Positions 6,824 to 55,739 of a stretch of DNA of 64,000 bases are shown here, in pieces (position 1 is the stretch's first letter; the number at the start of each line of letters is the position of its first letter). The position numbers and the translations under genes are program-made. The DNA is from Phoronis australis (Eukaryota > Animalia > Phoronida): NCBI GenBank assembly GCA_002633005.1, contig NMRA01000082.1, positions 534,576-598,575 of the forward strand, in the 5' to 3' direction. The notes below the pieces were generated by a model. That model was not told where the DNA came from. It worked only from the letters and a program-made list of their open reading frames with translations, and did not search any database.

Positions 6824-7115
6824 CTATACATAGGAGTAATATAGTGGGAGAGTTGTGGGTTGTGCTATACATGGTGATTGATGCCATTGGGAGACCGTGA
6901 CCTATGCATGGGAGTATTATAGTGGGAGGGTTGTGGGTTGTGCTATACATGGTGATTGATGCCATTGGGAGACCGTGACCTATGCATGGGAGTATTATAG
7001 TGGGAGGGTTGTGGGTTGTGCTATACATGGTGATTGATGCCATTGGAAGACCGTGACCTATGCATGGGAGTATTTTAGTGGGAGGGTTGTGGGTTGTGGT
7101 ATGAACAGTGATTGA
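6824..7115. repeat. Tandem minisatellite, 78-bp unit, ~3.7 copies
   Basis: The unit GTATTATAGTGGGAGGGTTGTGGGTTGTGCTATACATGGTGATTGATGCCATTGGGAGACCGTGACCTATGCATGGGA is repeated. It explains the 26-aa periodicity of ORF 6780-7043. Confidence 0.95.
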
Positions 7116-7161: not shown

Positions 7162-10100
7162 TAGTCGGTGGGTCAGAATTTGTAGGGCTTCTAGAAAATG
7201 GTTTTTATGAGTACTTTTGGGGGCAATTTTATTTTGGTGTTTTTTAATTCATTTGCTCGAGTGTTTTCAAAATCTAAAAAGTTCCCACATATAAAGTTGC
7301 ACATTTTTGAGAGATTTGAGTTTGAAGTTACATAATAATGACCAAAGAGCTTAGTAAACTTATATTTGTAAAAAACAGAGTTTTGGGATCTTTTTTGTAA
7401 AACAAGTAATATGGTCCCATCAGTGTCATTGCATTGAACAATAATACACTCAAATTACATCTTTCACTATTGTAGACTAATTGTAAAGAGTGAAATTTAA
7501 AAAATGCAAAGTGACACCTAGTGGCAGAAATGTGAACTAAGTCTGAATGTTACTAGAAGATTATTCTGGCATTGTCTGACAACACAAATACCACAGAACA
7601 CTTGAGACTGCACAAAATTTGTGCCTCAATGTCTGAACCATTGACTTATGGTGTAAAATGTTATTTGTTTGCATAATATACCAGGAATATCTTATACAGA
7701 AACAATGTAGTCGAATGATCTCTGTGAATGTGCACACAGACTGTACAGTATGACAATGATCAAGTAGGTATTTGCTTAGTAAAAGAACTAAGCTAATAGC
7801 TCACACTTTTTAAGCAATAAACTATAACGCAGTTGGAGAACCCAGTAGTCTATGTACAGTAGTTGTCTTATAATATGTCATCTTCATTATCATCATCACA
7901 GTCCAAAGTAGTGCAGTCAGTGTTACCAATGTTATTGCAGTTGTCACAACTGCACAATTCTGTGCAGTTTAGGCCAGCATTGCGGCATGAACACAGTCTC
8001 CCCACGCACATGTTTTTTTTCTGCACTTACAGCGTACATCATTTAGAACTGTCGACGGAGCTGTGGGCATTGCCATCCATTTAAACTGCAAGGCTCCACC
8101 GTCAAGCTGCCAACCATGGCCGACTCAAGAGGGTGCATGCATGTATGGATGCAGAGTGCGTCTGTACACTGTACACTGGTAATTGGCCCTCATGCGATGG
8201 AAAGTCAAGCAGTCCTTGTTTGGAAGCAGGCTCGATTCTGCCGCATGCTTCATTCGAAATATGTTGTAGCGGGCGGTGTTAACTGATTGTCAGTTACACC
8301 ATACAATTGGCAAATGAATGGTTCAACACATTCCACAACATTTTCACCCATCTCAAATGACTGCCCAATCTCTTCAAATACTTTTATGTACTGGGGACAG
8401 CCCGGCATAATTTTCAAAGGCTTCACCTTTCCCTTGCCCCTGAAGGCACTGACAGTGTCACAGCCGGTGAACACATGCATTCCAAGCAGGGCTTTTCATT
8501 TGCTCTGGCCAAGGTGACGTGCGATTTCACTGAGGTTGACTGTCCGTGCATTTGGACCCACTCCAGTGGATATCAGTAGGTGGCATCCGATGTCAGCAGC
8601 ATAGGCAACGCCGAGTACCATGACGTCGGTATCTGGGCTTCTGAGAACAACTTTGCTATGTGTCTGCGATTCATGTTTTGCATGCAACATCACCCTTGTG
8701 TCAGCCTCCTCGTGGTCACATTGAAGTTCCTGCACTTCGTCCAGTTTGTTGGTGTCATGATGACTGTGGATTACGTGGCACTCACTTCCATGGGATACAA
8801 ACAGCTTTACATTGGCAATGCAAGTAGCCGACTGCCACTGCTCAAACAAAAACTCGAGAAGAATTTCCTTGTTATTTCCATTTGATAAGAACTTCTTGTA
8901 TTGCTTCGGCATTTTCTGGTCTGGGCGAGTAATGCGCATTGTATACGCACCTGCTACACATCTCCTATTACGTTCACAGTTTTTAATGCTGACATCTTGG
9001 TACCTATCTACCACAAAGTCTACCCGTTTACTGTTGTGCAGTGAAGCGACAGACATCAACCGCTGTAGACATTCGTGAGCAAAAGAACCAAAAGTATCAG
9101 CAGATACTTGCATGCTGTGCAGAAATGCCATTGCATCAACGATCAATGCACTCTCAACTGTAGGTACCTCATCACAGCCACTGCTCAGTTCCTCAATAGC
9201 GTGCATCAGTTTGGCTTTGTCGGTTTTAACATTGTAGCCCTCGTAAGTAGCAATAGACCTAGGTACTGCACTCAGACTGTAAGACAGAAGTTCCTTGACA
9301 TCTACATCCCGGGTCTTTCCCACTATCAATAACCGCCCAAACAACTCGGAGCTTGTTTTCACAGACATAGTCTCAGAGTTTTGCTTTGTTACTGTTTTAC
9401 GCGTGTGGTTTGCTGCAACAGTTTTCAGCTTCATTTGTTTAATTGGCTTGTGAAAATCAACATCTCCACCATTTAACAGTCTCTCGTTACAAAAAGCTTC
9501 AGCGGCAGCAGATCCCAAATCATATGCATGTTCAAGGTCAAACCTTATACTCGGTGTACCACTTGACGAGACATCTTCTGCAACAATACCTGAGGACACA
9601 TTAATCCTATCATCTCCGTCATATGTAAAGGGGTCCACAAGTGACTGTATTACAGCTTGAATAGAATCAATCGAGGCTTCATCCTAGGTGATTGCTGAAG
9701 CATCAAGGTCTTTACAGACTTGAGCAGAGGACACTCGACCAGACATCTCTTTACATGCAACAGATATGGCACCCCTGTCATGGTGCGATAGAATCCATCT
9801 GTTGACAGCACCTTTAAAAATACATAAACACATGTGATTTGTGTTTGAAGTAAATTTCTCCCTTCACTGCAATTTCACAACAACTTACTTAGCCTTACAT
9901 ATTTTTATCACAATAATACACAAACTTATACTGATGCACGCAAATATTGTGGGTAAAGGAAAGTTATGGTTTTCAAAAAAGCATACTTTCAATCAGTTAT
10001 TTTTCATTTAAATCTCACAAATGTTTCCATAGTACTCCATTTAATTTCGACAGACAGCCAATTCCTTGTAGTTAATTTAAGAAAACTTTGAAATCATATT

Positions 10101-13100
10101 TAAACATTGTCACACTACTGGTATTAATTTTCACCTGTTTTGAGGCACTGGTATTTTTAATGCCTTTTAGCAATAATCAAATACCTTTGTTTAAAGTGAA
10201 CCCAGTCATTCCACCTTTGGTTTTCGAATCTCTGTTAATGGTCTGCTCAATTAGCTGGTCAAAAGCATTGGCACAGAATCCATAGTTTGTGTGTTGTTGG
10301 ACGCTGAATCCCTTGTAGACAAGTTCACTGTTGATTTCGGGATGGGTCGCTGGCAGAGAGGACATCTCAGCTAGGTATACAGGCAGGTATCTTGCATAGT
10401 TAATTCGATCATAGGCAAAGTACCAAAGCAGCATTGCATGCAGTACTGCTAAATGTAGTCCCCAAATACCCTCTCGTGTGGCTCGTATGAACTGCAGCAA
10501 CAATCCCACCATGTCCAGATACGATGACCAAAAGTCAAATGTGGGACTGTTCTTTCGTTTATGCAACACATACTCTGAATAGTGACTTAGGACAGTCAAT
10601 ACACAATCTTCCTCCAGCAAACCAAGGAATGCTGGTGATGCACCCACAGAGTTAAGCTGGCCTACGACTGCGAGTACCTCTTCTCCTCCCTCCTCAGTCA
10701 GAAAACTGGCAAAAGACTTCCATCTGAGCCGCTGTAAAGCCTAAAAGAAAAAAAATAATAAGTTACCGCATTCTGTTAAAACGTCCTTTTGTTTAGAAGT
10801 AATTGATTTATGCCACATATTCAATGTATACAAGCAATCTAAGAGCAAGTTATCGCTGTTCAACAAAATGTTAAAACGCTTAGCTAACTGCACCTGTGAT
10901 AAAATCTATGTGCCAAATCACAAAATTTAATTTAATTAGTTGAGGCTTTCTTAATTAATGGAAATCTACAAACCTCAAACAAGAGCTTGTGTGCCAACAT
11001 GCATCCGTTATAGTTGTGGCCAGACATCACCCCATTCATGGATCCAGGTGCAAGCACTTCAGCTTCAATCCAAATGTCTTCTAGTACAGAGTACTCAAAT
11101 CGTTTCGCGATGATAGCCAAAAATGACATGGCAGTGAGAAAGTCACCCAAGCGAATCACAAGTTTCTTTTGAAAGATTGGGTTTTGCCACCTGATGCGTT
11201 GAGCTTTAGCATATATGGCCTGGTCAAACACTACAACAAGGCTATCAAGCTTCAGCTCGTCGGCTATAGCAACACTTCTCAATAGAATGGTGTACACTGT
11301 AGACATATCAGTGGGATTAGCAACAATAACAGGCAAATAGCCAACTTTGGACACATTAGGTATGTCAACAGATTTAATTAGTCTGTTGAACCCAGTCCAG
11401 CCAGGTAGCTTTTCACCTACTACTTCAGGTTGCTTCGACAGGCAAAATGCAGTGACTGTCAAATTCTGGTGTGCAGTCACTGATGGAATAAAGGTAAGTG
11501 CATCACTACGGGGAGGACCACCTTTTTCTCTCCTCGAGTAGTCTTCAATCATCTTTGGGGGAAGGTCGCAAGTTTTTTTCTTCGACTTCTTTACAAAAAC
11601 TCCTTGTCTTTTGGATGGAGCTATTTCCTGGTGTTCCTGCTGTAGTTGTACAATTATCCCGGTGGTGTTATGGGTTGTGCCTGCACCACTCCGGGTTTCT
11701 TCTTGAAAATCGTTGTTGTCCCAAACTAATTTGGTGTGTATACCATCTAAGAAACCATGTTGGCACCATTGTATTTCTATGAAGCTGAGCCTCTGCTAAA
11801 GCAGTGTCAAACTGTAACACAGTCGAATGAGAAACGCAATGGCCCAGTCCATCTAGTCTACCAATGAGTGTAGAAGATCCAGTCAAATGTCAAACTGTCA
11901 TACCTAAAGCATAGTGTTTTGGCATCGGAGCTGAAGCCACAGACATAAGTACCCTGTCGACGTCTTGCCTAGTGCTAACAAACCCGTCTCCGGTCACTAG
12001 CACCGATGACCCATGCAAGAAAATTGTACAAGTGCGAAGGAATGTATTCCTTGACCGAGTCAGACTGAAACTCTTTGGCAGCAGGTGGCCGAACTGTAAC
12101 ACCTTCACAATCTTTTGCATAATTTCTTAAAATAAGTGCTGATCTTTACAACTCACGCCGGATGTCTTGAGATGAGTCCACAACTTTGAGGTCGTGCAGA
12201 CTTTCATCACCACTGCTGCTACCCTCGGATTCATAATAATCGGCAAGTGAATCATTAAACGCTAGCACCAGTTCACTTTCATACCTCTTACAAGGTCGTA
12301 CAAACTGCAGCTGTGGGTACAGTTTCAACAGACGTTTTTTAAGATTTCCTGTCCAAATACTTTCACGCACACCAGCTTTCTCAAGCATAGCTTCAAATTC
12401 TCGCTTAAGTTTGGTAAGGCGGATGACTTCCCCATGTTTCAGAAGCTTCATTTCAATAAAGTCCACACAAAACTGTTTGAAAACTTCACAGAAAAGTGGG
12501 GATTCTCCACTTGTCTGGTCTTTCACAATCTTTGTCAGGGGTCTCCTTAACTTTTTGTAGCAGGATCTATGATATTTAGCTTCCAAAGCCACAAGGTCTT
12601 TATCTTTAAACTTAATGTGCAGATTCATGTCCCCAGACTGCGCTGCTGCTTGTGATGCAAGTCCACCTGAAAGAACGTGAACTATTAACACTAATTTAAC
12701 ATTAAAAGTATTTGCATGCTCCTAACTATGTTAATGTATAGCAGGAACTAAAAGACAGTGCTATTTGAATATCGTCTACACTAATCGAAGTGCAGTTTTA
12801 TTCGTTGTCAACTTGTAGATGTGAAAACTAATAGGTGGCCTTTGCACTAATGACATACCTTGCGGCTCGCATAGCGTACATCATGCGTCACGATATTTAC
12901 TGGACACCGTTGAGTGATTTACAGTAGATCATATTTGACCCAAAACTCTTTCTTAAAAATATTTTGCAATTTTCAGCGTAATTCGTATTCACATCATCCC
13001 GATATGTGGTGTTTTGATCTAAATTTACCAAGTAACCACAGAGATAAGGAATTAGAATGTAAGTTCTACTTAAATATTGTGTTGATATGCAAATGTTTCA

Positions 13101-14082
13101 GATAGGCTGACTAAGCCTTGATCAACCACCAGCCTAACACGTTTGCATGCCGTCTGATCTGTCGCCTAAAAATGTTCATTTCAACAATTAAACCTTTCCA
13201 AAATGGGCACGAGTTTCCCAAATTAAAGAAGCGACCTTCATAATTAATTGCCAAATCCAGTTAGCATTTTGAACATGCAATGGTCAATACTTGTAATACA
13301 GGGAAATCTAAAACACAAACCTGGTTATAATAGTGAACACACTAGGAGAACACAAAAAATTAAATGTACTTTACAAAATTACATACTGTTATATACTCAA
13401 AGCGAGAAAGGTGCTCTTTCCTTCTCTTTCTAGAAATGCTGTCTACAACATATTTTCTTGTTGACAAATAAATACACTCAGGTGCCAGAATGTATGAACT
13501 TCTGGTGGTTGGTTTTTGTAGTTCCGACTTGGAAAGTCCCATGGATTTCCTTGGTTTTTCAGGGGTAACGTCTGTGACACTTTTATCTTCTTCATTTTTA
13601 GCACAAATGTTGGTTTCCGAAAACTTCGCTGTGCGTTTCTGTGCCCTTCTATAGCAAGACATATGATATTTCAAGGGAGTAAATCTCCTGTTTTCTTGCG
13701 TAAATTTCTGACACACTTCCTTTTCTTTGCCGTCTAAATTGGTCCATTGAGCTGCACATTCTTTGAACTTTCCCCAAGATGCTTTTGTAAACTTATTCAG
13801 CTTTTGATCTTCACAATTTATTGTCATTTCACAAACGTGAATAATACAGGCATCTCCCTCCATGGGAGCTGCCATATTGAAGTCATTCAGCACAACAACA
13901 CAATCTGGCTCTGTGATTGGTCAAATTGAACGAGAAGCGCTACCTGGTGGCAAAAATGTGTATAATATTTCTTGCAACAAAAACGCCTTTTTTAAGAAAA
14001 TGTGCAACTGTAGACATGGGAACTTTTTGGAATTTGATTTATAGGTATATTATCTAGCCACGTAGATCTAGCCCACCGACTA
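7162..14082 (-). mobile_element. Full-length, decayed Academ (AcademX) DNA transposon
   Basis: Left end TAGTCGGTGGG (7162) is the exact reverse complement of right end CCCACCGACTA (14082). ATT flanks both ends (7159-7161, 14083-14085). The internal gene has the transposase-XPG-Cys layout described for Academ. Confidence 0.88.
7868..13893 (-). pseudogene. Academ transposase / XPG(FEN1)-like nuclease / Cys-rich finger polyprotein; spliced, with several frameshifts and stops
   Basis: Motifs in order: ALEAKYHRSCY; WDNNDFQEETRSGAGTTH (~11670-11730); VVFDQAIYAKA...IRLGDF; YDRINYARY; DQLIEQTINRDSK; IVDAMAFL, FVVDRY, HEEADTRVMLH, SPDTDV, FTGCDTVSAFRGKGK (PIN/H3TH); C-terminal CRNAGLNCTELCSCDNC. GT-AG introns at 9812-10184, 10741-10973 and 12667-~13390. 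Confidence 0.85.
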
Positions 14083-16900: not shown

Positions 16901-17628
16901 TCAGCAGTTGTAATGTACTTCATGTCAAAGCTACAAAATAAATGTTTACCCATTTATATCTAATCTGCAAATTTTGATTGGTAGTTGGAATAATTTGTTC
17001 ATCAAGGTTTCTGTAAATGTCACTGAGTCCAGGATTTTTACTGGAAATGCAATTAGATCAAAAGACACCAAACTCCTATTAATATTTAAAGATGCATAAT
17101 TTTGGATGAATGCCCGCCTAAATTCTTCCCGGCAACTGTGAGACATTCATATTCTAAAATCTTTGCCTTGATAGGGTTGCAATGTTTTGAAACATTAAAA
17201 CTATTTCTCTAATAATTCAATTAGTCATTTATGTAACCACCCTTGTCCATTTTCTGTTTATTTTTTATTACACCCGAAACTAATTGTCATTATATTTAAT
17301 TAGTTGACATATTAATTGAGTAATGTGCTAATTATTACTTGAAGGGTTTCGTTGTTGCACTCTTTTTTGATTTTGGTAACACTCTTCGTTTTCGGAATTA
17401 AAAAAAAATTTAAACCTGTCAGATATTTAAAACGATAATCAAACTTGATTAAAAACACGACTATACTTTTGTTAGACGGCTTGATGTCCACGCGCTCATA
17501 TTCACTGTAAAATTTCCGATTTTCCGACCTGCCGCCATTATAATCAAACAAGCTTTAGTATTTCAAATCACCACTTTTATATCAAATACAACTAGACATA
17601 GCACCATCAGTCGATGAAGTGTTAGATT

Positions 17629-17689
17629 TGCGCATCAGCAAATAATATCTGATGGTAGCCTACCATCAGATATTATTTGCTGATGCGCA
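17629..17689. repeat. Perfect palindrome, 30-bp arms, 1-nt centre
   Basis: TGCGCATCAGCAAATAATATCTGATGGTAG-C-CTACCATCAGATATTATTTGCTGATGCGCA. Confidence 0.95.
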
Positions 17690-21677: not shown

Positions 21678-21769
21678 ACAGTACCATGTAATTCATAAAG
21701 TTTAAAAACGACAGTCACAATAGCAACACAATAATAATCACAACACACCGTAACTGATTAAACAAGAAG

Positions 21770-22906
21770 CAACACTTTGGCAATGAATTGCTTTTCCTCA
21801 ATTCCGGACCTGATTCTGTAGTGCTTAGGATGACTTTACATGGGGTCACATCACAGTCATCACTCATTGTCAGACAATAAAGTTAGGCAATAAAGTTCAT
21901 TGCAAATGTTTTCAAGTAATCGGCTGCTGGCAACCTACTAACCAAGTTGCTTGTTTCCAGAACTCACTCGCACAAGTATGGGATGCGTCGCAAGCAAACT
22001 GTGTTGCCTTAATGGGAAGACACTAGACGACAACAGTTCTGCGACGTCTCACGCTAGTGTGCTTGGATTAACATCTGAAGATCTCATTGGTTCTGACAGA
22101 AACGTTGAAAAAGGTAATGAAAATGGAAGAGAAATAGTTGAGTTTAGTTTCACTCTGAATACAGCTTACTTTAGTACTAATAGTTGCTTATCCAAACAAG
22201 TTATAAGTCATGAGAACTCTCACGGGTGACCCATGCATTCTAGACATTACCCTATCTTTTTGTTGGACTAAAAATAAGGTGTTCGTGGGGTTTGTGAGGT
22301 ACCCACTTCTAAAAAACAGATAACGTCCGCTTTTGGGTGTTACGCCACCGGTAATATGCTCTTCCACAAAAAACAGGCCAGGAATTATTTTGTGTGTTGC
22401 GACGAACATTTCATCCTTGTGTTTTCACAAGGATTCAGAGTTCCCCGGCTTTTCAACAAGAAGCAATACTTTGGTAATGAATTGCTTTTCCTCAATTCCG
22501 GACCTGATTTTGTAGTGCTTAGGATGACTTTACATGGGGTTACATCACAGTCATCACTCATTGTCAGGCAATAAAGTTCACTGCAAGTCATGGACAGCTG
22601 AGAACCCACTAACTTATTTGCCTGTTTCCAGAGCTCATTCGCACAAGCTGCTTTAGTATGGAGTGCGCCCCAAGCGAGCTGTGTTGCCGTAATGGAAAGA
22701 CACTAAACGACAACAGTTGTGCGACACCTCAGGCTAGTGTGCTTGGATCAACATCTGATGAAAACGTTGAAAAAGGTAATGAAAACGGAGAGAAATAACT
22801 GAGTTCAGTGTCACTCTGAATACAGCTTACTTTGGTAATATAGTTACTTAACCAACCAAGTTAAAATTCTAAGCATGAAATGAGAATTCTCGCGGGGGAC
22901 CCATGG
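21770..22906. repeat. Local duplication of a ~450-bp segment (21770-22235 and 22463-22906)
   Basis: Both copies run from CAA(C/T)ACTTTGG(C/T)AATGAATTGCTTTTCCTCAATTCCGGACCTG to GAGAA(C/T)TCTC(A/G)CGGG(T/G)GACCCATG. Confidence 0.9.
22240..22410 (-). mobile_element. LINE-like fossil fragment, paralogous to ~26610-26760
   Basis: Clear nucleotide similarity between the two segments (AATAAGGTGTTCGTG...AAAAAACAGATAA...GGCCAGGAAT). The translation loosely resembles the post-RT region of CR1/L2 ORF2. Confidence 0.4.
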
Positions 22907-23079
22907 ATTTAAGGGTTAGAGGTAGCGACCCCGTTGACTTAGCTTTCACAGGACTAGTCGCGAGAATGTGAATTTCCAGTCGTCCACGCGACTAACTTTT
23001 GATCGATCGAGTTTAGTTATCAAATCGAGCCTAATTTTATTGCTTCCGAAAAATTGCTTGTGGATTTATTTGCGTTGCT

Positions 23080-23082
<3 letters not shown>

Positions 23083-23144
<62 letters not shown>
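23083..23144. repeat. (TG)n microsatellite
   Basis: Uninterrupted TG run. Confidence 0.98.
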
Positions 23145-23147
<3 letters not shown>

Positions 23148-23230
23148 ATATGTACATGTATGCATGTGCATATTATTACTGTTTCGTGTTGTTTCTGTAA
23201 AAAATCATTTGTGCAATGTTTACCTGATGC

Positions 23231-26200
23231 CCGGTTGCATGAAATAGTCCCAATTTAGGGACTCAACTAAGATCCCTAAATCTACTGCGTATTTTTGGAC
23301 TTGTGGAAACAGCGATTGCCCATTCTTGTATTCTTTTAGTTTCATTATTAAATTACCTTTTCACTTTGATACAAATCGAAAGTCAACTCTACGTGAATTT
23401 GTCAATGTAATGGGAAATAATTAGGGATCTTTTCATGCACACTAAGTCCGTATTTTTTTTCAATGAACTCTGGGTTCAGTTTTCATTCATATTATTAGAG
23501 AAAGTCTTTAAACAAAGAGGGGCTTACTAAAGACGAAGTCTTCCAGTGGCGGATCTACGTTTTCAGTAAGGGGGTTAGGATTCCCGCAAAGGTCGAATCC
23601 GAGGCGCGTGGCGCCGAGCGGGGGGAGGTCGGGAAGGGGGGGGGGCTCCCCCCTACCGTGTAAGACAATTTTTTGTTTTTGTTGCCAAATAATGAAATTT
23701 CCATGCATCCTGGTAAGTTTCTGGCACTTAACATGTCTCTGGAGTTTTTCTTAAGATAATTTAAAACCCTTCTCGATTTCGTCACATGAACTTGGGTCAT
23801 AAGTTTCGTGAAACCATATTTGTGTACATCTGGGAATGAGTCACGACACCAGCAAAAATTGTTGTTGGAACATTTGCTTACACACACCTTTTTTACCATT
23901 ACGAAAAGTCGTATACGAAAAAGAGGGGCTTGTTCACAGGGGTTTAGACAACTACCAAATATTCAAGAGCAGAAGGAGTACCGACGGGGCATAAAAACTT
24001 GAATGTCAAATGATCGCGTAACAGCAGCCTCAAGTTAAGAACGAAGACCTGTACTGTTAGTCCGGAAATAAACATGTGTTCTGTCTCGTTACGAGAAAAA
24101 CTGGCGAACGATGGTACTCTCAGCTCATAGTCTATCATTAAAAGCGACAATAAAAATTTTAATTGTGATACTTAAAAGTATCATTTTATAAAGATGAATC
24201 ACGTTGACAACAATTGAAAAAACGTCAAATGTATTATGAAACAAAGCATCTGAAAATAGTTTCACGAAACCAAAACATTCTGTACATCGTGGTGAAAAGA
24301 TATACAGGACCAGTTCGCAGAGGGACCATCTAGAGTACACAAAAAGGCTGGCCTGGTCTGTCACGAGACCAAAAGTACACCTGTGCTTATTATCCCTATA
24401 AAAATAGTCGATCTGTCGCGTGACTAAACAGCACTTGCTGAGATAAATAGTTTAAAAAACACACGTTGGTAAAAACATCACAAGACTAGTTCGCCGAGGG
24501 ACCAGAAGTACACTGAAACTCAATATTTACACAAATCAAGCTGGCCTGGTCCGTCGCGAGACCTAAAGTGTACTATGCAAAAATTTTGAATTGAAAACTT
24601 CTATCTAAACACTTTTTAATCCCCAGTTGTTGCTCATTCGTGTATTTTACAAATCTGGTGGTCAATTGCTGCGAGATGTTGTCTAGGAAGAGTTTTCGCA
24701 CGGTTCTGTAGTACTCACTGGAAGAAACAAATATTGAGTACAGATTTAACTGCGCACTATGTGAAATAGATTTTGGATATGAAGAAGATAGAGCCAAGTG
24801 GAAATACAAACCAAAATCAGTTTCTGTGCGCTCATAGACCCTCGGCTGTACTGGGTAAAATTGGCATGACCACAAATAATTTCTATTTCGTTTTCATTGT
24901 ATACAAGCATAAAAAAACGACATTATATACAAACTGTGTAGAATTATAACTTATTACCTGGGTGTTTCTGCAGGAACGTTAGTCCTATCCTTCTGTTGTA
25001 TAGACTACCGAGGAATCTGTATATCGGATCCGATGGTTTGCTCGTCTTGGAATCATTGTACCCAGATATCTTCGATGTTTGTTACCAACGCTTGCACTTC
25101 GTCAACTGCTGTGTCAATGAGCTTGTAAGCCTCTACAACGTCAGCATCTCATGTCGCAGATCAGTTGGCACTAAGCCTCTTGAGGTTACCAAGTCCATTC
25201 AAAAGACTTACATGAGCAAAAAAATTTGATCCGTTCATCATGGACTACTTCAAACCTTGACGATGTATCCCAGGACCTATTTGCATCTCTTGCAATTTTC
25301 GAAATAAACGCCCCAATGTCTGAACGTTTGAAACCCGAAGTACTAACATCAAATAAATGACCATGGGCATGGGCGTTTCATCGNGGCGTTTCATCGGGTG
25401 GGCCTTTCTGCGGAAATTCCCAGTATAGAAGACGGCAGTAGTGCTTATTGCAGGTAGAAAGACGGTAGGTGTTGAGGTCAGAACTAGGGCTTCTCAGGAG
25501 GCCTACTGAACATCGCAAGAGTCCCGCAGGACTTTGTTGTGAAAGTACAGCTTTCCCGCAATTTCTGATAATGTACACTGTTCGCGAATGCGGTCACTTT
25601 GTCAATGTGAGTGCCCCCTTGGTCATTCCTTGTATAGACATAACTTGTTAGAGTGTATCTTCAAACGGACTCGCTACCAGACCACGGCGCCCGCCACAAT
25701 AGCAATTCTTCGGAAAACGATTTTTTTTCATAAATATTACATGTACATGTACACTGTATGATATTGCGCAAGACAATTTTATTATACACCAGTCAAATTC
25801 GAGTTGCAAACGTGTGGAGTGTTATAGCATGACACGGCATGACAGATGAGATAAAAACGTTGCACGTCAATTTGCCTGAATACCAGGGTTGCGGCACCAA
25901 AGTATTTTCCGTAATCAAATCAAAACATATTTTAGAGTAACGAAGCTAGTTACCTAAAGAAATCAGCTATAAAGCTGCTCTTTCAGCGGTGGATCCATCT
26001 AAAATGCTTGGCTACTTCATAAGTGTTGACGCGTGTTTTGCCGATGAGCCACGAAGACTCGAAATGCATTGATTTTCATAACAGCAATTCACAATGCAAA
26101 AATTATATTTTCAGAGTGAACCCCCTCAATTTTTTCCAAGTTGGTTTACTTAGGCTTTACACACGCTGGCGATGCCGCTTTTGTTTTGCTGGAGACGTTT

Positions 26201-26377
26201 TCTTCATTTTTGGGTCCTAGCCCAAGGGGGGGTTTAAACTCCATGAACCCCCCCGTAGACCGCCACTGGAAGTGATAACAAAGTATTGCATCTCTGAGTC
26301 CATAAAGACACAAATACGCCAAAGGACTTTGGGACCTTAGTTTGGTCCCTATTTGGGACTGTTTCATGCAACCAGCC
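23231..26377. mobile_element. Harbinger-like MITE split by a nested 2.7-kb insertion
   Basis: CCGGTTGCATGAAATAGTCCCAATTTAGGGAC (~23232) is inverted against GTCCCTATTTGGGACTGTTTCATGCAACCAG (~26345-26375). An uninterrupted short relative lies at ~44626-44830. Confidence 0.55.
23544..26268. mobile_element. CAGTGGCGG-terminus non-autonomous element, nested
   Basis: CAGTGGCGGATCTACG at the left and CGTAGACCGCCACTG at the right. No clean TSD. Confidence 0.55.
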
Positions 26378-26519
26378 ACTGATGCCCACGGACTCAATTC
26401 AATTGATGAGCGGCATTGTTACCTATGACATATACCTGTGCTCGTGAAATAAAATTAATCAATTTAAAGTTTTCTTTGTAAAAGAATGTAATATTTTGTG
26501 TAACCGAGAAAGTTCTTGC

Positions 26520-26990
26520 TTTTGGCAGAATGTCGCCTTACCGTTAACCACTTTTGCCACTCATGAAATTGACATACCCCATTGTGATTTTCTTCGCGAC
26601 ATTGCTGCATTTTTTGTTCGACTAGAAAGAAAGAATAAGGTGTTCGTGAGTTTTTGAGGTACACACTACTAAAAAACAGATAATGCCCGCTTTTGGATAT
26701 TACGCCAACAGTAATATCCTGTTCCACAAGAAAACGTGGCCAGGAATTTTTGTGTGTTACGGCGAGTGTTTTCACATGGACCAATCAAGGTGCCACCTTT
26801 TTATCCGTATGTCCTTCTTTTCAACTGCGTTGCCCTGCTTGTTAATTCTTGTATCTTGGCATCTATGCAACAGGTGTTCCAAATAGTATTGTCTCTTTCA
26901 TATGAAAATATACCTTCCAGAGTCCACTTTCTTTAGTAACGGAACTATCGTAGAATGTGTTCCAATGTCTCTGGTTTACTGTATTACTAT
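26520..26990 (-). mobile_element. Fossil LINE (CR1/L2-like) 3' ORF2 fragment
   Basis: Paralogous to 22240-22410, with a decayed FYxSF...WNxL-type motif near 26920-26960. Confidence 0.35.
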
Positions 26991-28271
26991 TACTATTTTT
27001 ACTCGATCAAGAAATGAGTTCATTTCTAAATGTCTTCGTATAGTCCTAGTACACTGCAGCCAATGTAATCAGCTATTCACAGTACATTTCAGAGCTACGC
27101 AACTGGTGTTTGCCCATTTTTATCTGTCAGAACATGCTTACTGGAAATTACGCATAAATAGTTGGAATAAATTTTGTTGCATTCTGAATTTTTACTAAAG
27201 AACGTATTTGTATCGAACAGCATCAAAGGTCCAATTAAAATATAAAGATGTATAATTTCGGATTAGTGCCTGAATAAATTCTTCACAGCAACTGTGGGAA
27301 ATCCATATTCTAAAATTTTTGTCTTTATCAGTAAAATCCTTTTGAAACATTGGTTTAATAAGTCATTTATAGAATGTCTACTTCTGTGGTTCATTTCCGC
27401 TTGATGTCATTGATATACATTAAATCGTTTGATTTTAAAAGTTAATTAGTTGACTAAGTAATTCATTAATCAATATATTATTACATGAACGGCTTCATTA
27501 TTACATTTTGCTTCTGTTAAAACCAAACACTAGCAATCGCCTGCAGGCAATCTTCCGTTTCACATTGTTTGAAATAGTCCGATAACATACGATTTTTTTG
27601 GAAGAAAGTTTCGATGTTAACAGTTCTAATTTTATTTCATTTCTGCTTAACATAAATTCAACCCCAAGCCCCATATATCCTTGCAGCAAACAACAACGGA
27701 TCAACCAAACTCAAACAAGTCCCATGCATGCCCCGCCTGTGATAGACGTTGTCATTCCATTCTTACAGTTTTATGGCTTAAACTTTGCAACAGAATTTGG
27801 CAATAACAGATACACTTCGTCATCGTGAAAAATGTTAAAGAGTTGTTATTACAGGGTGTACCACGGTTTACAAAAATGATATCTTGCACTGTGATTTGAC
27901 TGGAAAAGGAAATACACGGACGAGATTTTAAATTCATGTTTACAAATGTTGTCGATATCGCTTGAAATGTCTACAGACCCATCATTTGGATGATCACCAT
28001 TCTTTGGAGGTGTTTGTTTTAGAACTAGCCAAATTACGCAATCAACTTAACGTAAGTGGAAGGTGATCGTACAAATATAAAATGTATGATTATAATTTGA
28101 GTGTTACCTCGTGAAAGCCATTTGCTTACTTGTGCTGTGTGAAGTCTATTAAATCTAACATTGCATTATTCTCCCGTGATTTTTAATCATGGCCCCCACC
28201 CCCGATACACGTTAGAGATTCAAAGAAAGATACAAAAACATTTTGAAATGAAACAACATTGATAGATATTA

Positions 28272-29519
28272 ATGCTGACTCAACTCTTTTCAGGGCAACT
28301 TGACGATGAGGAACAACGGTTGGCGTCAGAATTACGGCAACTTTCTGAAGAAGATAGGGGTTCAATATTAGGTGGTAAGATACTTCAAAAAATGGGTGAC
28401 GTTTACATGAAGCGAGGCTTATTGCAGGGATGTGCACAGCACTTTGTTACGACCTCGGCGTTATACAATGCTGCGTTAATGCGATATAATGAGTCTGGGA
28501 TGAAACATCAAGTTGAAGCGTCAATGGAACAAAATGAACGAGCATTCTACAATATGATTTCAATATCAAATCATAAAATTCCAATGGAGTTTAGGTGTGA
28601 AATAAAAGAAGAATTGGACCGTATCAGGAAAGATATTACTCCGACAGCAAATCAGGTACTAGACAAATTTGCTAAAAACCTAAACATGGAAGCAGGAAAT
28701 GAAGAAAGAGTGATGGTGGAAAGGGGATTTGTTAAGGAAACGAGGAATGCTTTTGAAGGTTTGTGTACCAATTTGAAGGGATTTCACAACAGTCTTCTAT
28801 CAAAATGTCAAATGATATTAGGCCCGCCTCCCCAGGACTACACTGCCATGGCCATGGGATCATTAGCAAGGGGAGAGGCAACACCTTATTCAGACTTGGA
28901 GTGGGCCATTTTGGTAAAAGATGACGACCAAGATCTCGAGTACTTCAGAAACCTGGTTCGACTTATGCACATATTCGTTTTAAACATTGGAGAAACAAAT
29001 CTGAAGACCATGAATATTAAGTCACTCAATGATTATTTCACACCTGATGGGAACTGGTTCAGTGACACCGTTGTAGCTAGGGGAGTTGAATTTGATAGTG
29101 CAGCGCCTTTTGCTTGCAAAACGCCACTTGGAAGACCTGACAGAACCGGAAGACAAGGCATAGAATTGATAAAAACACCCAAACACATGGCTGCAATATG
29201 CGAAAGTGAAACCGCCTTTAAGGAGGGTTATAACTTCGATCGCGTATTGACGGTTACAACCAAACTCCATGGAGATGATCACCTTTTTGAAAAGTTCAGA
29301 CAGCTCAGAGCATATAATCAGGCTAAGGAAGACTCGAGTAGAAAGTACATTCAGGATATCCGTAATGTAGTGGATGAGTTCTTACCACAACTGAGTTTTC
29401 ACACGGATAACGCAGCAACTCATGACATTAAAAAAGAGATGTTGCGGTTGCCGACTTTGGTTGTCGTTTTACTGAAACCGTTATTCAGTTTGAATAATGA
29501 TTTTATTTGGATGAGATGA
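28272..29519 (+). CDS. N-terminal part of NTase-TPR protein: helical region plus Pol-beta-superfamily nucleotidyltransferase (DUF294/GlnD-like)
   Basis: 415-aa ORF containing LGPPPQDYTAMAMGSLARGEATPYSDLEWAILV, which fits the hG[GS]x9-13Dh[DE]h signature. It continues with GETNL, GVEFD, CKTPLGR, ELIKTP and the start of a helical DIKKEMLRLP domain. It joins the next ORF by a frameshift at ~29505. Confidence 0.8.
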   Translation: MLTQLFSGQLDDEEQRLASELRQLSEEDRGSILGGKILQKMGDVYMKRGLLQGCAQHFVTTSALYNAALMRYNESGMKHQVEASMEQNERAFYNMISISNHKIPMEFRCEIKEELDRIRKDITPTANQVLDKFAKNLNMEAGNEERVMVERGFVKETRNAFEGLCTNLKGFHNSLLSKCQMILGPPPQDYTAMAMGSLARGEATPYSDLEWAILVKDDDQDLEYFRNLVRLMHIFVLNIGETNLKTMNIKSLNDYFTPDGNWFSDTVVARGVEFDSAAPFACKTPLGRPDRTGRQGIELIKTPKHMAAICESETAFKEGYNFDRVLTVTTKLHGDDHLFEKFRQLRAYNQAKEDSSRKYIQDIRNVVDEFLPQLSFHTDNAATHDIKKEMLRLPTLVVVLLKPLFSLNNDFIWMR

Positions 29520-32212
29520 TATCTGAATCCATATTGACATCCGATGGAGGGCATAATTTGCTTGTGGTCATTTCCATCGTGGCCCTTCTCAGACTCGTAA
29601 TGTACTCTAGTAAAGCAAGACAGCACGAAGTGTTTGTTTTATTTGGAAACTCAAACTCATCTGATCTGGGAAAATCTACCGTACCAGGATATAACAGATA
29701 CAAGCATTTGGTTATTCGATATTATTATTCAATGTTACCATTAGCTTATTTTGTAAGAAGTAAACAGTTAGTAGAGGCACGTACCAAGCGACAAATAGAT
29801 GACATGTTTTATGAAAGAAATCATTTAACAGAAGGTTTAATTGAATTTTATTGCCTCTCCAACGAACGTGCCAGAGAACAATTTTTTGCTCACATTGAAT
29901 CAGTTTCTGTAAATCCACACAAAAGAGAAAGGGAGGACGTAGTAGTTCAGCACAAAGGAAAGGATATTTTCTGTGACCACACAAACAGTACAGTACGGCG
30001 CTGCCTCTTCAATATCGGTGAAACCTACATGGCAGAAAAAAAGTTCGAAGAAGTTTTGAAATATAACTTACATACTTTCAGACTGATCTGGCGGAAACAC
30101 ATCACCAAAAGCAGATTCCCAATGCATAACTATGGTGATCAGGGGATTCATTCTATTTTGAATACGATTGGAAGCTTGCATGAAATGAACAAGAAAGAGT
30201 TGAAGTATACTGAATATGATGCTGTTGAAGTAACATGTATCGCAGATAGTCTTAAAGTTATCGGGAATGTCTGTACAGCTATGGCTATGCACAACTTGGC
30301 CATGATATACTACGAAGAGTCACTGAGTTTGAAGAGGAAGATATACGGTGATGGTGAGCATCCCGGTATTGCCACTCTTTTGAATAATATTGGGGGTGTG
30401 TATTACAGCATGAGTAAGTATGACCTAGCCTTACAATACCAGCAAGACTCACTGAGTATGACGAGGAGGATACACAATGATGGTGATCATCCCAGCATTG
30501 CCACAAGTTTGAATAATCTTGGGAGTGTGTATGAAAAGATGTGTAAGTACGACCTGGCCTTACAATTCTATCAACTGTCACTGGGTATGAAGAGGAGGAT
30601 ACACGGTGATGGTGATCATCCCAAAATTGCCATTAGTTTGTATAGCATTGGGAGTGTGTATCAGGAGATGCGTAAGTACGACTTGGCCTCACAATACTAC
30701 CAAGACTCACTGGATATGAATAGGAGGATACACGGTGATATTGATCATCCCGACATTGCCATTAGTTTGAAAGATATTGGGGATATGTTTAACAAGATGA
30801 ATAAGTATGAATTGGCCTTACAATACTACCGAGAGTCACTGGATATGAAGAGGAGGATACACAGTGATGGTGACCATGCCAACATTGCCACTATTTTGAA
30901 TAATATTGGGACTGTGTATTACAACATGTTCATGTACAACCTGGCCTTACAATACCATCAAGACTCACTGAGTATGATGAGGAGGATACACGGTGATGGT
31001 GATCATCCCAGCATTGCCAAAAATTTGCATAATATTGGGGATGTATATAACAACATGTGTAAGTACGACCTGGCGTTACAGTACCATCAAGACTCACTGA
31101 GTATGATGAGGAGGATACACAGTGATGGTGATAATGTCAACATTGCCACAAGTTTGAATGATATTGGGGATGTATATAAGGAGATGAGTAAGTACGACCT
31201 GGCCTTACAATCCTATCAAGACTCACTGAGTATGAGGAGGAGGATAAACGGTGATGGTGATCATCCCGACGTTGCCGCTAGTTTGAATAATCTTGGGAAT
31301 GTGTATATTAACATGTATAAGTACGATCTGGCCTTACAATCCTATCAAGACTCACTGAGTATGAGGAGGAGGATAAACGGTGATGGTGATCATCCCGGTA
31401 TTGCCACTCTTTTGAATAATATTGGGGGTGTGTATTACAGCATGAGTAAGTATGACCTAGCCTTACAATACCAGCAAGACTCACTGGATATGGAGAGGAG
31501 GATACACGGTGATGATGATCATCCCAGCATTGCCACAAGTTTGAATAATCTTGGGAGTGTGTATGATAAGATGTGTAAGTACGACATGGCCTTACAATTC
31601 TATCAACTGTCACTGGGTATGAAGAGGAGGATACACGGTGATGTTGATCATTTCAACATTGCCACTACTTTGAATTGTATTGGGGATGTGTTTAACAAGA
31701 TGAGTAAGTACGACCTGGCCTTACAATACTATCAACAGTTACTGGGTATGGAGAGAAGAATACACGGTGATGGTGATCATCCCAATATTGCCGCTTGTTT
31801 GGATAGCATTGAGAGTGTGTATAGGGAGATGAGTAAGTACGACATGGCCTTACAATCCTATCAAGACTCACTGGGTATGATGAGGAGGATACACGGTGAT
31901 GTTGATCATTCCAACATGGCCACTACTTTGAATAATATTGGTTCTGTGTATTACAACATGTCTATGTAGGACCTGGCCTTACAATACTACCAAGACTCAC
32001 TGGGTATGAGGAGGAGAATACACGGTGATGGTGATCATCCGGACATTGCCGCTTGTTTGAATAATGTTTGGTATGTGTATAATGAGATGTGTAAGTACGA
32101 TCTGTCCTTACAATACTATCAACTGTCACTGGGTATGAAGAGGGCGATACACGGTGATGGTGATCATCCCAACATTGACACTAGTTTGAATAATATTGGG
32201 ACTGTCTGTTAA
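29507..32212 (+). pseudogene. C-terminal part of NTase-TPR protein: helical substrate-binding-like domain plus TPR array; in-frame TAG at 31967
   Basis: The 820-aa ORF and the 68-aa ORF are in the same frame. The TAG replaces the Tyr codon (TAC/TAT) found at this position in the other repeats. The terminal stop is TAA at 32210-32212. Confidence 0.8.
30230..32209 (+). repeat. Coding tandem array of 129-bp / 43-aa TPR units (kinesin-light-chain/NPHP3-like type)
   Basis: Units start at 30359+129n, giving 14 full units to 32164, one partial unit and one degenerate leading unit. Consensus HPxIAxxLxxIGxVYxxMxKYDLALQxYQxSLxMxRRIHGDGD. Confidence 0.95.
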
Positions 32213-32799
32213 ATCACAATCAAGGTCCATATTCGAGAGTTGACTGTGTTACGGTTTAAAATAATTTTTGGTCACTTACCAAATGCCAACTGAATCTCAT
32301 TATGCAAAGCGGTCTTTAGTTGTGCAAATTTAATAAAGAATCATCAAAATCGGACAATATTTGAGAAATTTATGCATGTTTTTTTCTATGAATTTCATAC
32401 ATTCTGAGCGTTACGAGTGGCCATTTTTAAAATAACAATTTTCAACTGTCAAAAGTAGAAAAGAAATTTATTTTATCAAATAAGCAGCTGTTTAGATATG
32501 ACTGGGGATAACGTAAGGCACATTCAGAGTCAATTAGATGAAGTTGTGAATAATCATTGAGAAATGGTAGGGTTCATCATAAAACAGGTACTCGTTACGA
32601 AATTTGTAAATTCTGTGTTTCTAAACTTCACCTACTGTAAAGAAGGTTAAAAACTAAAGCTCACACTCTGTAACGCAAAGAATTGCAAAATTTGTCAGCC
32701 TAGGCAACACAGCAAATTCTTCAATGTCTAAACATACCAAATGTTTGGATATTGAATGAGTTCTGCTATGTTGAAAATGGGCCAAAAAGGCCAACAAAA

Positions 32800-50732: not shown

Positions 50733-53713
50733 TGCTCTGTCCAGTTAACTGAAATTGAGCTTTAAAACGAGGTTATGCTTTGTACAAAAGAATTAGGTGT
50801 TATAATTTTTAAATTCAACTTGGTCGAGATTGATATTTCAAAAATATAACACATGAAATAGACGTAACTATTAAAACCAAGAAAGCAGAAATGATGGCCA
50901 TATAATTTTTATTTTCAATTGCGAGCCTGGTAATTAAAATATATATTTAATAACATCAAGTATTATTTCAGATCAATGTCAAATCAACTGTTAGTCCCAG
51001 TAGTGCCTACCTCACCAGGACCTAGGCTATACTTGAAGCTGAAAAAGGCCTACTCTTGATAAACAAATTGAACCAGAAGTGACTAATTGCATAGGACAGC
51101 AAAATGCTATGAGCCACCACTGTCGAATGTATCTTCAACTCGTCAACAATACGACCAGATGACCTGGTTCGTGTAGAAAGCATTTTTATCAAGAATTTAT
51201 TAAAAGAAACGTAACCCTACATTCAGCATGATACCTAATCCGTAACACTACGATCGCCGCAGTTTGGTCATGTTTACTTTTCATGTTTCGAACCTTGTTT
51301 TCCGGAAAAAAACTTATATCCTTTCGTCAGACAACTCTTTGGTGCATTGACTTGTTCTTTAACTGTATTTTTCTACGTCTCTGTTGTTAATTATTGACAC
51401 ATTTTTAAGATTTAATATTCAGGTTGGACTCCAAAGACCGGCCATTTAACTCACGCAAAGTAAATTTCCGCTTTGTTTATCGCAGTTATCCTCGCTTTGG
51501 ATTTTAATGTCCGCCGCGTGAATTGGGTCAATAGACCAATTTGAATAAAAGTTGGGAGCAAAATTTTGCAAACGATAGAGTTATAGAAACTGATGTGTTA
51601 ACATTAAGTATTTCAATGAAAAAAGAATAATGCACGACACCAAAAACACCCTGTACTGGTTGGTACGCACATATACATCGGTTAGTCGCGTGTGCCTGTG
51701 AACACCACTGCTTGGGCAGCCGAAGCCGGAGGTCGAAGTATGCATTTGCCCAGACCCAATTTTCCGAAAGGCGATTGGAATTGCCCACTTCAGGTTATAC
51801 CAAGGAATTATAATTACATGAATATGCTGAAGTTCTTTTCAGAAAATAAAACGTATGTAAGGTGCGCTGAGGTGTATCAAGGAAAATTACTTCAGTGATA
51901 CGCTACTTTTCTTTAACCATCTAGTATTACTCGTCCTAGTACCTAATTTATATTAGCGTGGTGAACTGGTAATTTGTACAGTTTGAAACGACATGGTCTC
52001 ACAGTTCAAACAGTTGTGTCACAGACTCTGTTGTAAAACAACACGCCGTGTAACTAGAGTTTTAAAAAGGCAATCACATCATTAAGTTTTACCAGTATTC
52101 ATTTTACACCAATGAATGTACCCTTTTAGCCAACCATGATGCGCGGAATAGCAGATTTTTTTCTGTCAATAACAAGCACATTTCCATCTGATTGACCAAC
52201 CAGAACGAGAAGGACAACAAAATGCTGATACAGAAACAACACATTGGGGTACTGTAACCAGTTCAGACAATAAAGTTTCTATTTATTACGAAATACATCT
52301 ATTTCAAAATATCACCATCACGCAGTAAATTCACACCGTGACCTTAAAAGAGAAATGTCTAGCTGGTACAAAGTTACTGTACCGTACTGGTACACGCACT
52401 CCACTTCAGCAAAAGTCAGATTTCAACCAACTCTAATTTAGTCCCTCAATTCATTTGGCTCCGACATTTACAGGCACACAAATATGTTGCTAGGTACATT
52501 TGTATTGACAACAAAATAAATATGACAAAACTCAATGGTCATAAACTCTACCTGCCCTGTCCTACATTGACACAATGTAAGTAGCAGAAGACCATAAACA
52601 GTACATAACATAAAAATGATGGTTTTCCTCAAGTAAGACAGATGCAGATTTCAATAGCTTGCCAGGCTACAGAACATTTGTCCCATCTCTTGAAATCTAC
52701 AGAAACAACCCATCTACCGTCTTATAGTATAGCATTTTTGGGGTATCCCTTCCTTCGATCCTGCTCTATTTTTAGTAACCTGGCTATATTAATGGATCTT
52801 CGAATTGATGTCCACTCTGTAAAAATGTACAACTATTAATCTTGTAGTCACTTTTTGTGTTTCTTCGTTGCTAGACTCAGATATCTTGGTCATTAAACCC
52901 TTAAAGACATATCGGACTAAGAAGGAAAGTCAAGTAAAATACCATGAAAAATCGACCTAAGTGGGTGTTCTAGAGACCAAATTAAGTTCACCAATATTGT
53001 TTTATTTTATTTCAGTTTAATTTTTAAACCTCGATAGAAAAAACATTATATCACTGATTCTGGGTCTAATCTTTGTACTAGAAATCAAACTTTATGTTTT
53101 ATTTTTATGTCTTTTGCTATAACTAAAGAACCTTTAATTACGTATTCAAGCATGCAATGATTTTCTTGGATGATTTTCAAAAAATCCTACTTTGCATTTG
53201 ATGATACTAACATAAAAGCTATGAGTTTGTACTTGAAATCTCGTGTTGTTTCCAATATTGGTTCCTAGATACTATACAGTACACCCGCATCTCCACTTTC
53301 ATGGTTCATCCGCAAGATGGCGGACATCTCCGCTCACCGAAAACCACGTGACTTCAACTCTAGTTATATTTATCTCATTGTGCCCGACCAACAGTTTGCT
53401 TATAGCGGTGAAACATTCTCCGTTACATTCTAGCCATGCCTACCTCACTTCAGCCATTTTGTGTTGCAACACTCGCACAAACGATCGCACCTCGCTCAAG
53501 AGATTCTGATTGTGGGAGACTTTATCTCACTTACTGTATCTCGTAACGTAGTAATTTAAGGAACTTTGCTCGCACGCCAACGGGTATATACAAATACAAC
53601 CTGTGTGGTGACGCTGCTGAAAGCGGCAGTTAACTTTGCAAGGCCCTCTATCCGGCTGAATTCTGCATTTGTGTTGTCAATTTTTCCGAATATTTGTTTT
53701 CGATATTTTTCAG

Positions 53714-54004
53714 ATTATGAGGTCAAAAAGTTTTGCAGGGGAACCGGTACACCTTTCAAGCGCGAATGCGAAAAAGGTTTTCGAGTCTTCTTTGAAAAGT
53801 ACTCGGCTTTCCAGACGTCGGATACCTGCCAAACCAAGTCTGAATACGAGTGTTCTGATCAGGGAGAAAAAATGTTAAACACCATCAAGGAAATTTGCGA
53901 ACGCCAACGAAGCCAAGGTTACTGTACTTTTGAGATTGATCCCAAGACAATGGGATCGACATGTGAGGATGGCAACGAATTTGCTTCGTCATCTGCGTGT
54001 TATC
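53714..54004 (+). CDS. Exon 4: SUEL-type lectin-like domain
   Basis: tttttcag|...TATC|gtaagt, 291 nt, phase 1-1. Eight Cys in SUEL-like spacing: FCRG...ECEKG...DTC...ECS...ICE...YCTF...GSTC...ACY. Confidence 0.75.
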
Positions 54005-55053: not shown

Positions 55054-55257
55054 CTCACATGGCTATAGAAGTTGCCAGACAAGGGTTACGTGAACGTTCA
55101 CCGCGTTTTGAGGCCTGCATGGACGTGGGAGATTTAGTCACTGATGTCCGCTGCAAAACACCAATGCGAGGAAGAAGTGTGAAAACAATTTTTCATATGA
55201 TGGGTTGGAAGAAATTCGACATCCGTCAGATATATGTGTATGGCCACAAACCAAGCA
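55054..55257 (+). CDS. Exon 5: C-terminal half of the galactose-binding/F-lectin-like domain
   Basis: cttgacag|...|gtgagt, 204 nt, phase 1-1. Encodes ...ACMDVGDLVTDVRCKTPMRGRSVKTIF...FDIRQIYVYG, matching the CxxPMxGRxV...ExxVYG pattern. Confidence 0.75.
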
Positions 55258-55739
55258 GTGAGTTTTGACGGAATTCGTTCTAAGATGGTTGTACGATCCG
55301 GCTTAAATTAATAGGATGACATGTCTGTGAGGCAATTCTACGAATACTCCCATACGTCGTCATCTTGTGAATTCCATTTTTCAATCCATTACGGAACCCA
55401 GTCTTGCTTTGCTACTAACCTTCACAACCCATGCAGTTTGTAGTTTAGAAACGTGTGATCTGCGTGGCCGCCTCATACATGTATAGAGTTCAAATAGACA
55501 GTGAGACTACACAGTTCTTCGAGGTTTGGTTTACCGACAAGCCTTCAAATTACAACAGTATGCTTAGATATTAAAATATTTCTCGATTCATGCACAGCAT
55601 GGTATCTCGTGCTTGAGCTTGTGCAAGTACTTTATGTGAATTTCGATACAGTTACATGTACCACTGATTATGTTATGACTACGTCTCTAGTTGGCACGGT
55701 AGAACCGTCCATTCCATCCCTTGCATGGGTTTCTTTCAG

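Follow-up and report, generated by a model that had tools for sequence, protein, structure and literature searches.

Several described systems resemble the gene reported here. The Legionella effector DrrA (SidM; PDB 6YX5, Pfam SidM_N) is a protein AMPylase with the motif G98-S99...D110-x-D112 plus D150 (PMC7815794), and a 2015 survey describes DrrA-like proteins as confined to Legionella (PMC4454073). HEPN domains of the GlnD, GlnE and DrrA type are reported to lack the RNase motif (PMC3710099). In Neochlamydia, NEX2 comprises 50 F-box-(OTU)-DUF294-TPR proteins (TPR, tetratricopeptide repeat), whose role as effectors is putative in Domman et al. 2014 (PMC4209131). Among animals, a 2021 review names just two AMPylase classes, FICD and SelO (PMC8097203), which also appear as animal AMPylases in PMC12409994. 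The gene described here occupies positions 28272-32212 of a 64,000-nucleotide stretch of Phoronis australis DNA (the window; GCA_002633005.1, contig NMRA01000082.1, forward strand, 534,576-598,575). It belongs to a family that is neither DrrA nor NEX2 by membership and that is predicted, from structural models, to join a DrrA-like action to a recognition module like that of NOD-like receptors (NLRs), in animals.

The encoded domains follow the order TPR-like hairpin, DUF294 nucleotidyltransferase (NTase; G-S...D-x-E...D), helical HEPN-like domain and 14-15 TPRs of 43 residues (Table 1). In the Pfam scan, frame 1 matched DUF294 above the cut-off (E 1.1e-7) and SidM_N below it (E 8.7e-5, 22.4 bits vs a cut-off of 27), and frame 2 matched TPR_12 (E 3.6e-133). 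No NACHT or NB-ARC domain was found in the scans of either frame, nor any F-box (main exon), guanine nucleotide exchange factor (GEF) or P4M family in the scan of the window gene. The original prediction, made from the letters alone, had read one coding block without introns, starting at ATG 28272. The motif that it named, MGSLARGEATPYSDLEW (28854-28904), the helical domain that follows and the TPR array are all present in the sequence, and so is its helical N-terminus, which the fold matches of the model identify as a TPR-like hairpin. The single block did not hold: the segment consists of two frames, 28266-29519 (417 residues) and 29501-31969 (822 residues), the second of which ends at an internal TAG and can be read on as far as the TAA at 32210-32212, and RNA reads join it to an exon 6.2 kb upstream. 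No second copy lies within the window, as tblastn of 244 relatives placed 0 of 1146 hits outside 28100-32400.

The likeness to DrrA lies in a G-S-L...D-x-acid motif with equal spacing and in an NTase followed by a helical HEPN-like bundle; DrrA also works at membranes, by binding phosphatidylinositol 4-phosphate, and the window gene has a predicted lipid anchor. Unlike DrrA, the window gene is animal-encoded with a spliceosomal intron, has D-x-E instead of D-x-D, scores under the SidM_N cut-off and carries a TPR array instead of GEF and P4M domains. With NEX2 it shares the hairpin-NTase-helical-TPR core and the multi-copy state, and one Owenia member has an OTU domain as well, whereas the window gene is host-encoded, has an acylation-type N-terminus and lacks F-box and OTU. 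GlnE (the glutamine synthetase adenylyltransferase, with adenylyl-transferring, AT, and adenylyl-removing, AR, domains) and GlnD/DUF294 proteins have the same predicted fold (Z 17.6-18.1), the DUF294 match and a helical domain without the RNase motif, but nitrogen-control partners and ACT or CBS domains are missing from the window gene. Fungal NLRs likewise have long TPRs of the kinesin light chain (KLC) type, with ~81% internal identity, concave-face variation and signs of shuffling (Dyrka et al. 2014, PMC4986451); unlike them, the window gene has no NACHT/NB-ARC, joins its enzyme directly to the repeats and has units of 43 rather than 42 residues.

Structural models give the enzyme domain a predicted fold like that of the DrrA AMPylase domain. 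Frame 1 was modelled with AlphaFold together with 108 relatives (predicted local distance difference test score, pLDDT, 86.7). Foldseek placed DrrA (6yx5_B) first (E 5.6e-5), and the other two of the three matches at E <=0.001 were both GlnE. Against 48,161 representative chains DrrA was again on top (Z 16.1, root-mean-square deviation (rmsd) 4.1, 251 aligned residues), with GlnE at 14.1 and 13.2. An intact relative, P0139, was also modelled (pLDDT 87.3) and matched DrrA in Foldseek at E 1.5e-7. In its structural comparison against 951 Foldseek chains DrrA again came first, with 324 of 339 residues, nearly the whole AMPylase domain, aligned (Z 24.4, rmsd 3.7), and its helical region 351-518 aligned to DrrA 209-346. 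GlnE AT and AR followed at Z 18.1 and 17.6, aminoglycoside nucleotidyltransferases reached at most 8.8, and Hailong HalB gave a weak 5.2. The fold check on these predicted models thus returns an NTase, DrrA and then GlnE, and together with the Pfam match it bears out the earlier view that the layout is of the DUF294/GlnD/GlnE type rather than the cGAS type. Two further searches were uninformative about the enzyme: a profile search of solved sequences was filled by TPR matches, and an alignment search among proteins of 2457-5000 residues gave no information on it.

The active site is conserved throughout the family. The window motif, G188...D200-x-E202, fits G-x11-[DE]-x-[DE] and has the same G-to-D spacing of 12 as DrrA. 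It is kept in 244-245 of the 247 family rows compared (from 266, with 18 short rows and one without a hit left out): G in 245, S in 241, D in 244 and E in 245. Among candidates for the third acid, D267 is kept in 245 rows and D257 in 234. Of 116 proteins matched by pattern, 101 lack the HEPN RNase motif Rx4-6H behind the conserved Arg, and it was not seen in the window frame either.

Since the nearest solved structure is a protein AMPylase, protein nucleotidylation (NMPylation) is favoured over second-messenger synthesis. The Pol-beta superfamily fold, the weak HalB match (Z 5.2) and the cGAS-TPR fusions of oyster (PMC8195603) would suit an enzyme that, in the manner of cGAS-like receptors, produces a nucleotide signal, either cyclic or linear. 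Such a synthase is quite improbable, however, as all three clear structural matches are protein-modifying enzymes and no cGAS or OAS chain stands among the best 50 rows of each fold-search list, where DrrA and GlnE lead, although this absence is no proof against a Mab-21/OAS-type fold. The near-equal scores of GlnE AR and AT (17.6 vs 18.1) would also allow an eraser that strips nucleotides placed on host proteins by microbial effectors, from which hosts of AMPylating microbes might benefit. We hold this to be very unlikely in view of the clearly higher DrrA score (24.4) and of the endosymbiont kin, which are read as host-directed effectors (PMC4209131).

The repeat array combines invariant and highly variable positions. 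Tandem Repeats Finder (TRF) reports a 129-bp unit in 14.7 copies at 30307-32205 (81% matches), and the units align to KLC TPRs (E 1.7e-36). Thirteen of the 43 unit positions are invariant, and positions 6, 10, 16, 19, 20, 22 and 38 carry 4-8 residues. Units 1 and 9 differ by 7 bases and units 2 and 10 by 3, against 16-32 for other pairs; on these counts they are recent copies of each other. Ratios of nonsynonymous to synonymous change (dN/dS) were obtained from pairwise counts on 11 units, with the two near-duplicates and the stop-bearing unit omitted. The value is 0.60 at packing positions. The peptide contacts of KLC1, K340, N343, N344, L347, L348 and N351 (PMC6214655), map by alignment to unit positions 9, 12, 13, 16, 17 and 20, where dN/dS is 2.68 (bootstrap 1.41-5.15), a value matched by 1155 of 100,000 random six-position sets. 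Positions 9, 16 and 19 are variable in all four amphioxus arrays examined, and fungal NLR TPRs show the same regime of groove variability (PMC4986451). The array of about 15 units proposed earlier is upheld as 14-15 units, and its diversification is supported by variable groove positions and repeat turnover.

The family is widespread and multi-copy. A phmmer search returned 1543 clusters at 50% identity (E <=0.001), and among the best 150 the top hits are 30-37% identical. Most named hits come from four Branchiostoma species and their hybrids, often clustered on one scaffold, and Owenia fusiformis has 10 family proteins; Saccoglossus, Ptychodera, Styela, Clavelina, Xenia, Paramuricea and Dendronephthya also have members. 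By sequence, the family is multi-copy in amphioxus and Owenia and present in hemichordates, tunicates and octocorals, so the expanded invertebrate family of the original prediction stands, and the relatives are not a single-copy vertical ortholog with invariant TPRs. No vertebrate, arthropod or nematode was seen among the named members and 30 of 145 further representatives checked, which is not proof of absence. An atlas lists a DUF294 cluster rich in ciliates, and protists may share the family for that reason. One Owenia protein, P0166, starts with MGNS and has the order OTU-DUF294-DUF294-TPR, which is that of ten NEX2 members.

In databases, members carry automatic names such as KLC, TTC28-like and 'Protein-PII uridylyltransferase N-terminal domain-containing', which means that this pairing of domains is already on record. 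The literature searched, which covers few subscription papers, yielded no description of the animal family, and neither did passages of PMC3482391 and PMC8195603.

Bacterial kin include intracellular lineages, in which the family is multi-copy. Named members belong to Neochlamydia (E down to 1e-23, 26-34% identity to the window protein), Parachlamydiaceae and Jidaibacter. Scanning 185,579 genomes with a pattern identified 18 loci, of which 9 lie in Chlamydiota, Holosporales or Rickettsiales and 6 in Gammaproteobacteria. All five such bacterial genomes inspected contain 5-18 DUF294 matches. Of 200 genomes from the chlamydial phylum, 21 have the family, as do 7 of 86 from the gammaproteobacterium's order. 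In that gammaproteobacterial genome (G003, 3 Mb; loci L008, L011-L014 and L019), DUF294 is matched 18 times, in frames of ~900-3000 residues, and a single 0.7-Mb contig holds 15 of these matches. Among 66 pattern matches in viral contigs, none was confirmed as a relative.

These kin bear on how the repeats work. In a gated sensor-effector, the TPRs would keep the DrrA-like domain inactive as long as no non-self ligand is bound; upon binding, one fixed host target would be modified and the cell killed or arrested, as by an NLR without its NOD. Groove variability and repeat turnover are as in fungal NLR sensors, the DrrA adenylyltransferase domain is under allosteric control and cytotoxic alone (PMC7815794, PMC8097203), and two amphioxus gene models contain CARD and Death fusions. 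In the window gene, though, the Pfam scan detects no NTPase switch of the oligomerising kind, and the bacterial kin join the same TPRs to F-box and OTU domains, with the repeats read as target recruiters (PMC4209131). Gating is thus an unlikely alternative, if a serious one. A selector is preferred over a gate because of this bacterial pairing and the missing NOD switch, and a substrate-selecting role would fit at least as well as the 'repeat-gated' enzyme first proposed. The two amphioxus models are P0354 (CARD-fn3-NTase-TPR) and P0112 (NTase-TPR-Roc-COR-Death), which may be model fusions.

Phylogenetic analysis addressed the suggested horizontal, endosymbiont origin. The FastTree built from 247 rows has an unresolved backbone, from which lineages expand separately in clades of 71, 32 and 30 rows; proteins P0054-P0098, from ENA, Logan and JGI, form a 30-row clade that groups with the window and Owenia rows. 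In a 93-row tree (11 loci left out as short), a group free of named bacteria takes in all 23 named animal rows (Shimodaira-Hasegawa approximate likelihood-ratio test support 83-91). In an 87-row tree (14 near-duplicates left out; outgroup, 8 of 11 GlnD and CBS-DUF294 loci), 20 of 20 named animal rows form part of one 34-row clade (96) nested among bacterial rows. GlnD and CBS-DUF294 rows have very long branches and lie outside the family. These trees are quick, with non-mixture models and long branches. Transfer from bacteria to animals seemed to be supported by the two quick trees but failed the approximately unbiased (AU) test, in which a tree with the 27 named bacterial rows constrained to one clade gained 15 log-likelihood units (p 0.667), and for this reason no direction of transfer is claimed. 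Sequence comparison shows that the animal genes are kin to endosymbiont genes, so this part of the proposed origin stands; a single origin in animals is compatible with the trees.

The window copy itself is damaged, and close copies are expressed. Reads were aligned on 26800-30330 from one DNA run and three RNA runs (X5, X6 and X7; ~18-19% of each RNA run), the RNA and DNA runs sharing the species label but coming from different individuals; four DNA runs of one study contain 57-65% of sampled words. A same-species DNA contig spanning 29509 has 10 extra bases at full depth (28.3 of 28.3), which fill an alignment gap against residues 439-442 of amphioxus P0006. RNA reads carry 10 extra bases in two versions, in 5 of 12 reads of X5, 3 and 5 of 18 of X6 and 0 of 4 listed of X7, and a third sequence type at the lesion is a loose end. 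The deleted form was seen in no row of the RNA reads listed, although unlisted reads could hold it. The 10-base deletion may be a null allele or an assembly error. The window allele would probably yield an inactive 453-residue product that ends inside the helical domain. Close copies are transcribed with the frame intact at this position, contrary to what an absence of intact expressed paralogs would give.

RNA reads also place the beginning of the gene far upstream. RNA is found in every bin of 28216-30330 (X5, X6) and is zero in 27980-28215. Its first mates fall almost entirely on the minus strand, the sign of plus-strand RNA in most stranded libraries. Loose ends before 28299 (11 reads in X5, 8 in X6) match 22089-22113 with 2 mismatches in 25 and GT next, and this segment joins the main exon in frame. 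The next-best match, 22751-22775 in a duplicate exon, has 6 mismatches, and all others have at least 8. The single-exon model and the start at 28272, an ATG within the pyrimidine tract that ends in AG 28292-28293, were rejected because RNA depth and junction reads point to that AG and to exon A. Most reads are 88-95% like the window, which means that the expressed copies include several paralogs or divergent alleles; a likeness of at least 99% is reached by 36 and 41 reads. Their few mismatches assign the junction reads to a close paralog or allele, and we infer the same splicing at the exact window locus. Bacterial contamination was considered and rejected in view of the GT-AG intron with junction reads and of the nearby fibronectin type III and thrombospondin type 1 exons.

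A tandem duplication of ~680 bases (window 21758-22840) gives two alternative first coding exons. Exon A encodes a 45-residue low-complexity peptide, predicted from its sequence to be a double lipid (membrane) anchor, with Gly2, Ser6 and Lys7 in what we take to be the N-myristoyltransferase consensus and Cys3, 9 and 10 as presumed palmitoylation sites. Exon B is a possible alternative N-terminus, for which no junction read was seen. Sense RNA depth is low over exons A and B (~0.3-2; exon A ~0.4-2 in X5 and X6). No further 5' exon was found with the RNA reads over the two exons, and the main junction was absent among the loose ends listed there.

Table 1. Features of the Phoronis australis window gene (coordinates are window positions).
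Feature	Position	Strand	Basis and remarks
Exon A	21961..22113	+	ATG 21978, MGCVASKLCC..., 45 codons + 1 base; RNA loose ends; AG before, GT after, phase 1
Intron, exon A to main exon	22114..28293	+	GT-AG, 6180 bases; holds ATG 28272 in pyrimidine tract; junction reads
Exon B	22632..22775	+	ATG 22658, MECAPSELCC..., without Gly2; same phase and GT donor; ~680-bp tandem duplication
TPR-like helical hairpins, start of main exon	28294..28586	+	Model residues 1-97 match TPR folds
DrrA/GlnE-type nucleotidyltransferase domain	28587..29330	+	Pfam, models; approximate borders
Catalytic-motif residues	G 28857, S 28860, D 28893, E 28899; candidate third acid D 29094 (or D 29064)	+	Alignment; third metal ligand inferred
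Helical HEPN-like domain (DUF294_C/GlnD-type)	29331..29820	+	Split by frameshift; approximate borders
10-base deletion	29509..29510	+	Frame 1 then stops at 29517-29519; same-species DNA contig, RNA reads, amphioxus P0006
14 full 43-residue KLC-like TPR units	30350..32155	+	Degenerate unit before, partial unit after; TRF, unit alignment
TAG in unit 13	31967..31969	+	Tyr in other 13 units; array would lose ~two units; unit alignment
Final stop TAA	32210..32212	+	Within partial unit

Repeats, broken open frames and exons of a neighbouring gene were noted elsewhere in the window. On the minus strand, 8496-13920 contains five open frames (186-395 residues, all on this strand) that are interrupted by stops, have no Pfam match (0 of 5) and resemble a decayed large DNA-transposon gene. 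A tandem repeat (78 bases x 3.7 copies, 95% matches) lies at 6814-7102 and a perfect inverted repeat (30 bases, spacer of 1 base) at 17629-17689. A dispersed repeat at 17074-17172 and 27230-27328 (82% alike) shows high DNA depth and, in X7, attracts more than 100 RNA reads that originate elsewhere. On the plus strand, 53560-60838 holds the neighbouring gene's exons with the fibronectin type III and thrombospondin type 1 matches.

Taken together, the models and the repeat variation give about an even chance that intact copies of the gene encode a protein NMPylase anchored to the membrane, with a TPR groove that picks out a target shifting under host-microbe conflict. This enzyme would move a nucleotide onto a TPR-chosen protein. 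All three clear structural matches being protein-modifying enzymes, the chemistry would be Mg-dependent transfer of a nucleoside monophosphate (NMP), probably AMP, to protein Tyr, Ser or Thr. The groove would bind a peptide of the target, as in KLC, and may diversify because that target keeps changing, whether it is microbial or a host protein under contest, for example a small GTPase. The family may thereby serve in defence against, or control of, intracellular microbes.

Several observations weigh against the NMPylase reading. Identity to DrrA is just 14-16%, and a common fold alone does not show function; the second acid of the family is Glu where DrrA has Asp; and the window protein has Leu and Ser at two positions where 224 and 219 of the 247 family rows have Tyr and Gly, respectively. 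Over all 43 unit positions dN/dS is 1.26, with a bootstrap interval (0.78-2.19) that includes 1, and the value of 3.53 (2.08-6.46) at canonical groove positions belongs to a set picked after the variability table was known. The pairwise counts are not independent, do not come from a codon model and may be biased by gene conversion. Just 2 gene models show Death-fold fusions, and in the model with CARD the catalytic Glu is replaced by Gln. Among 377 family proteins a Met-Gly start occurs in just 20, which means that the anchor is not a general feature of the gene models now available; Ser or Thr stands at position 6 in 8 of 18 distinct Met-Gly starters vs 55 of 352 others (p 0.0035), and gene models may often miss small exons like exon A.

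The broken window copy and the whole-array dN/dS indistinguishable from 1 could instead reflect an ordinary signalling or trafficking enzyme, or drifting duplicates with neutral repeat variation. This we consider improbable, since 13 of 43 unit positions are invariant while the groove is hypervariable, the catalytic residues are conserved over 247 rows, and lineages have separate clades (71, 32 and 30 rows).

Extended to the family, the NMPylase reading would give invertebrates, from octocorals to amphioxus, a large and fast-diversifying arsenal of DrrA-type AMPylases, with an origin in, or common with, intracellular bacterial effectors. NLR-style hypervariable TPRs would find microbial or contested host proteins at membranes, nucleotidylation would switch them off, and alternative first exons would toggle anchoring. 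This wider picture is tentative, its chance falling somewhat short of even. If true, it would add a third class of animal AMPylase beside FICD and SelO and would tie animal genes to the putative NEX2 effectors of amoeba symbionts. It would also reveal an immune effector arm so far undescribed, a candidate for NMP-based innate defence in invertebrates.

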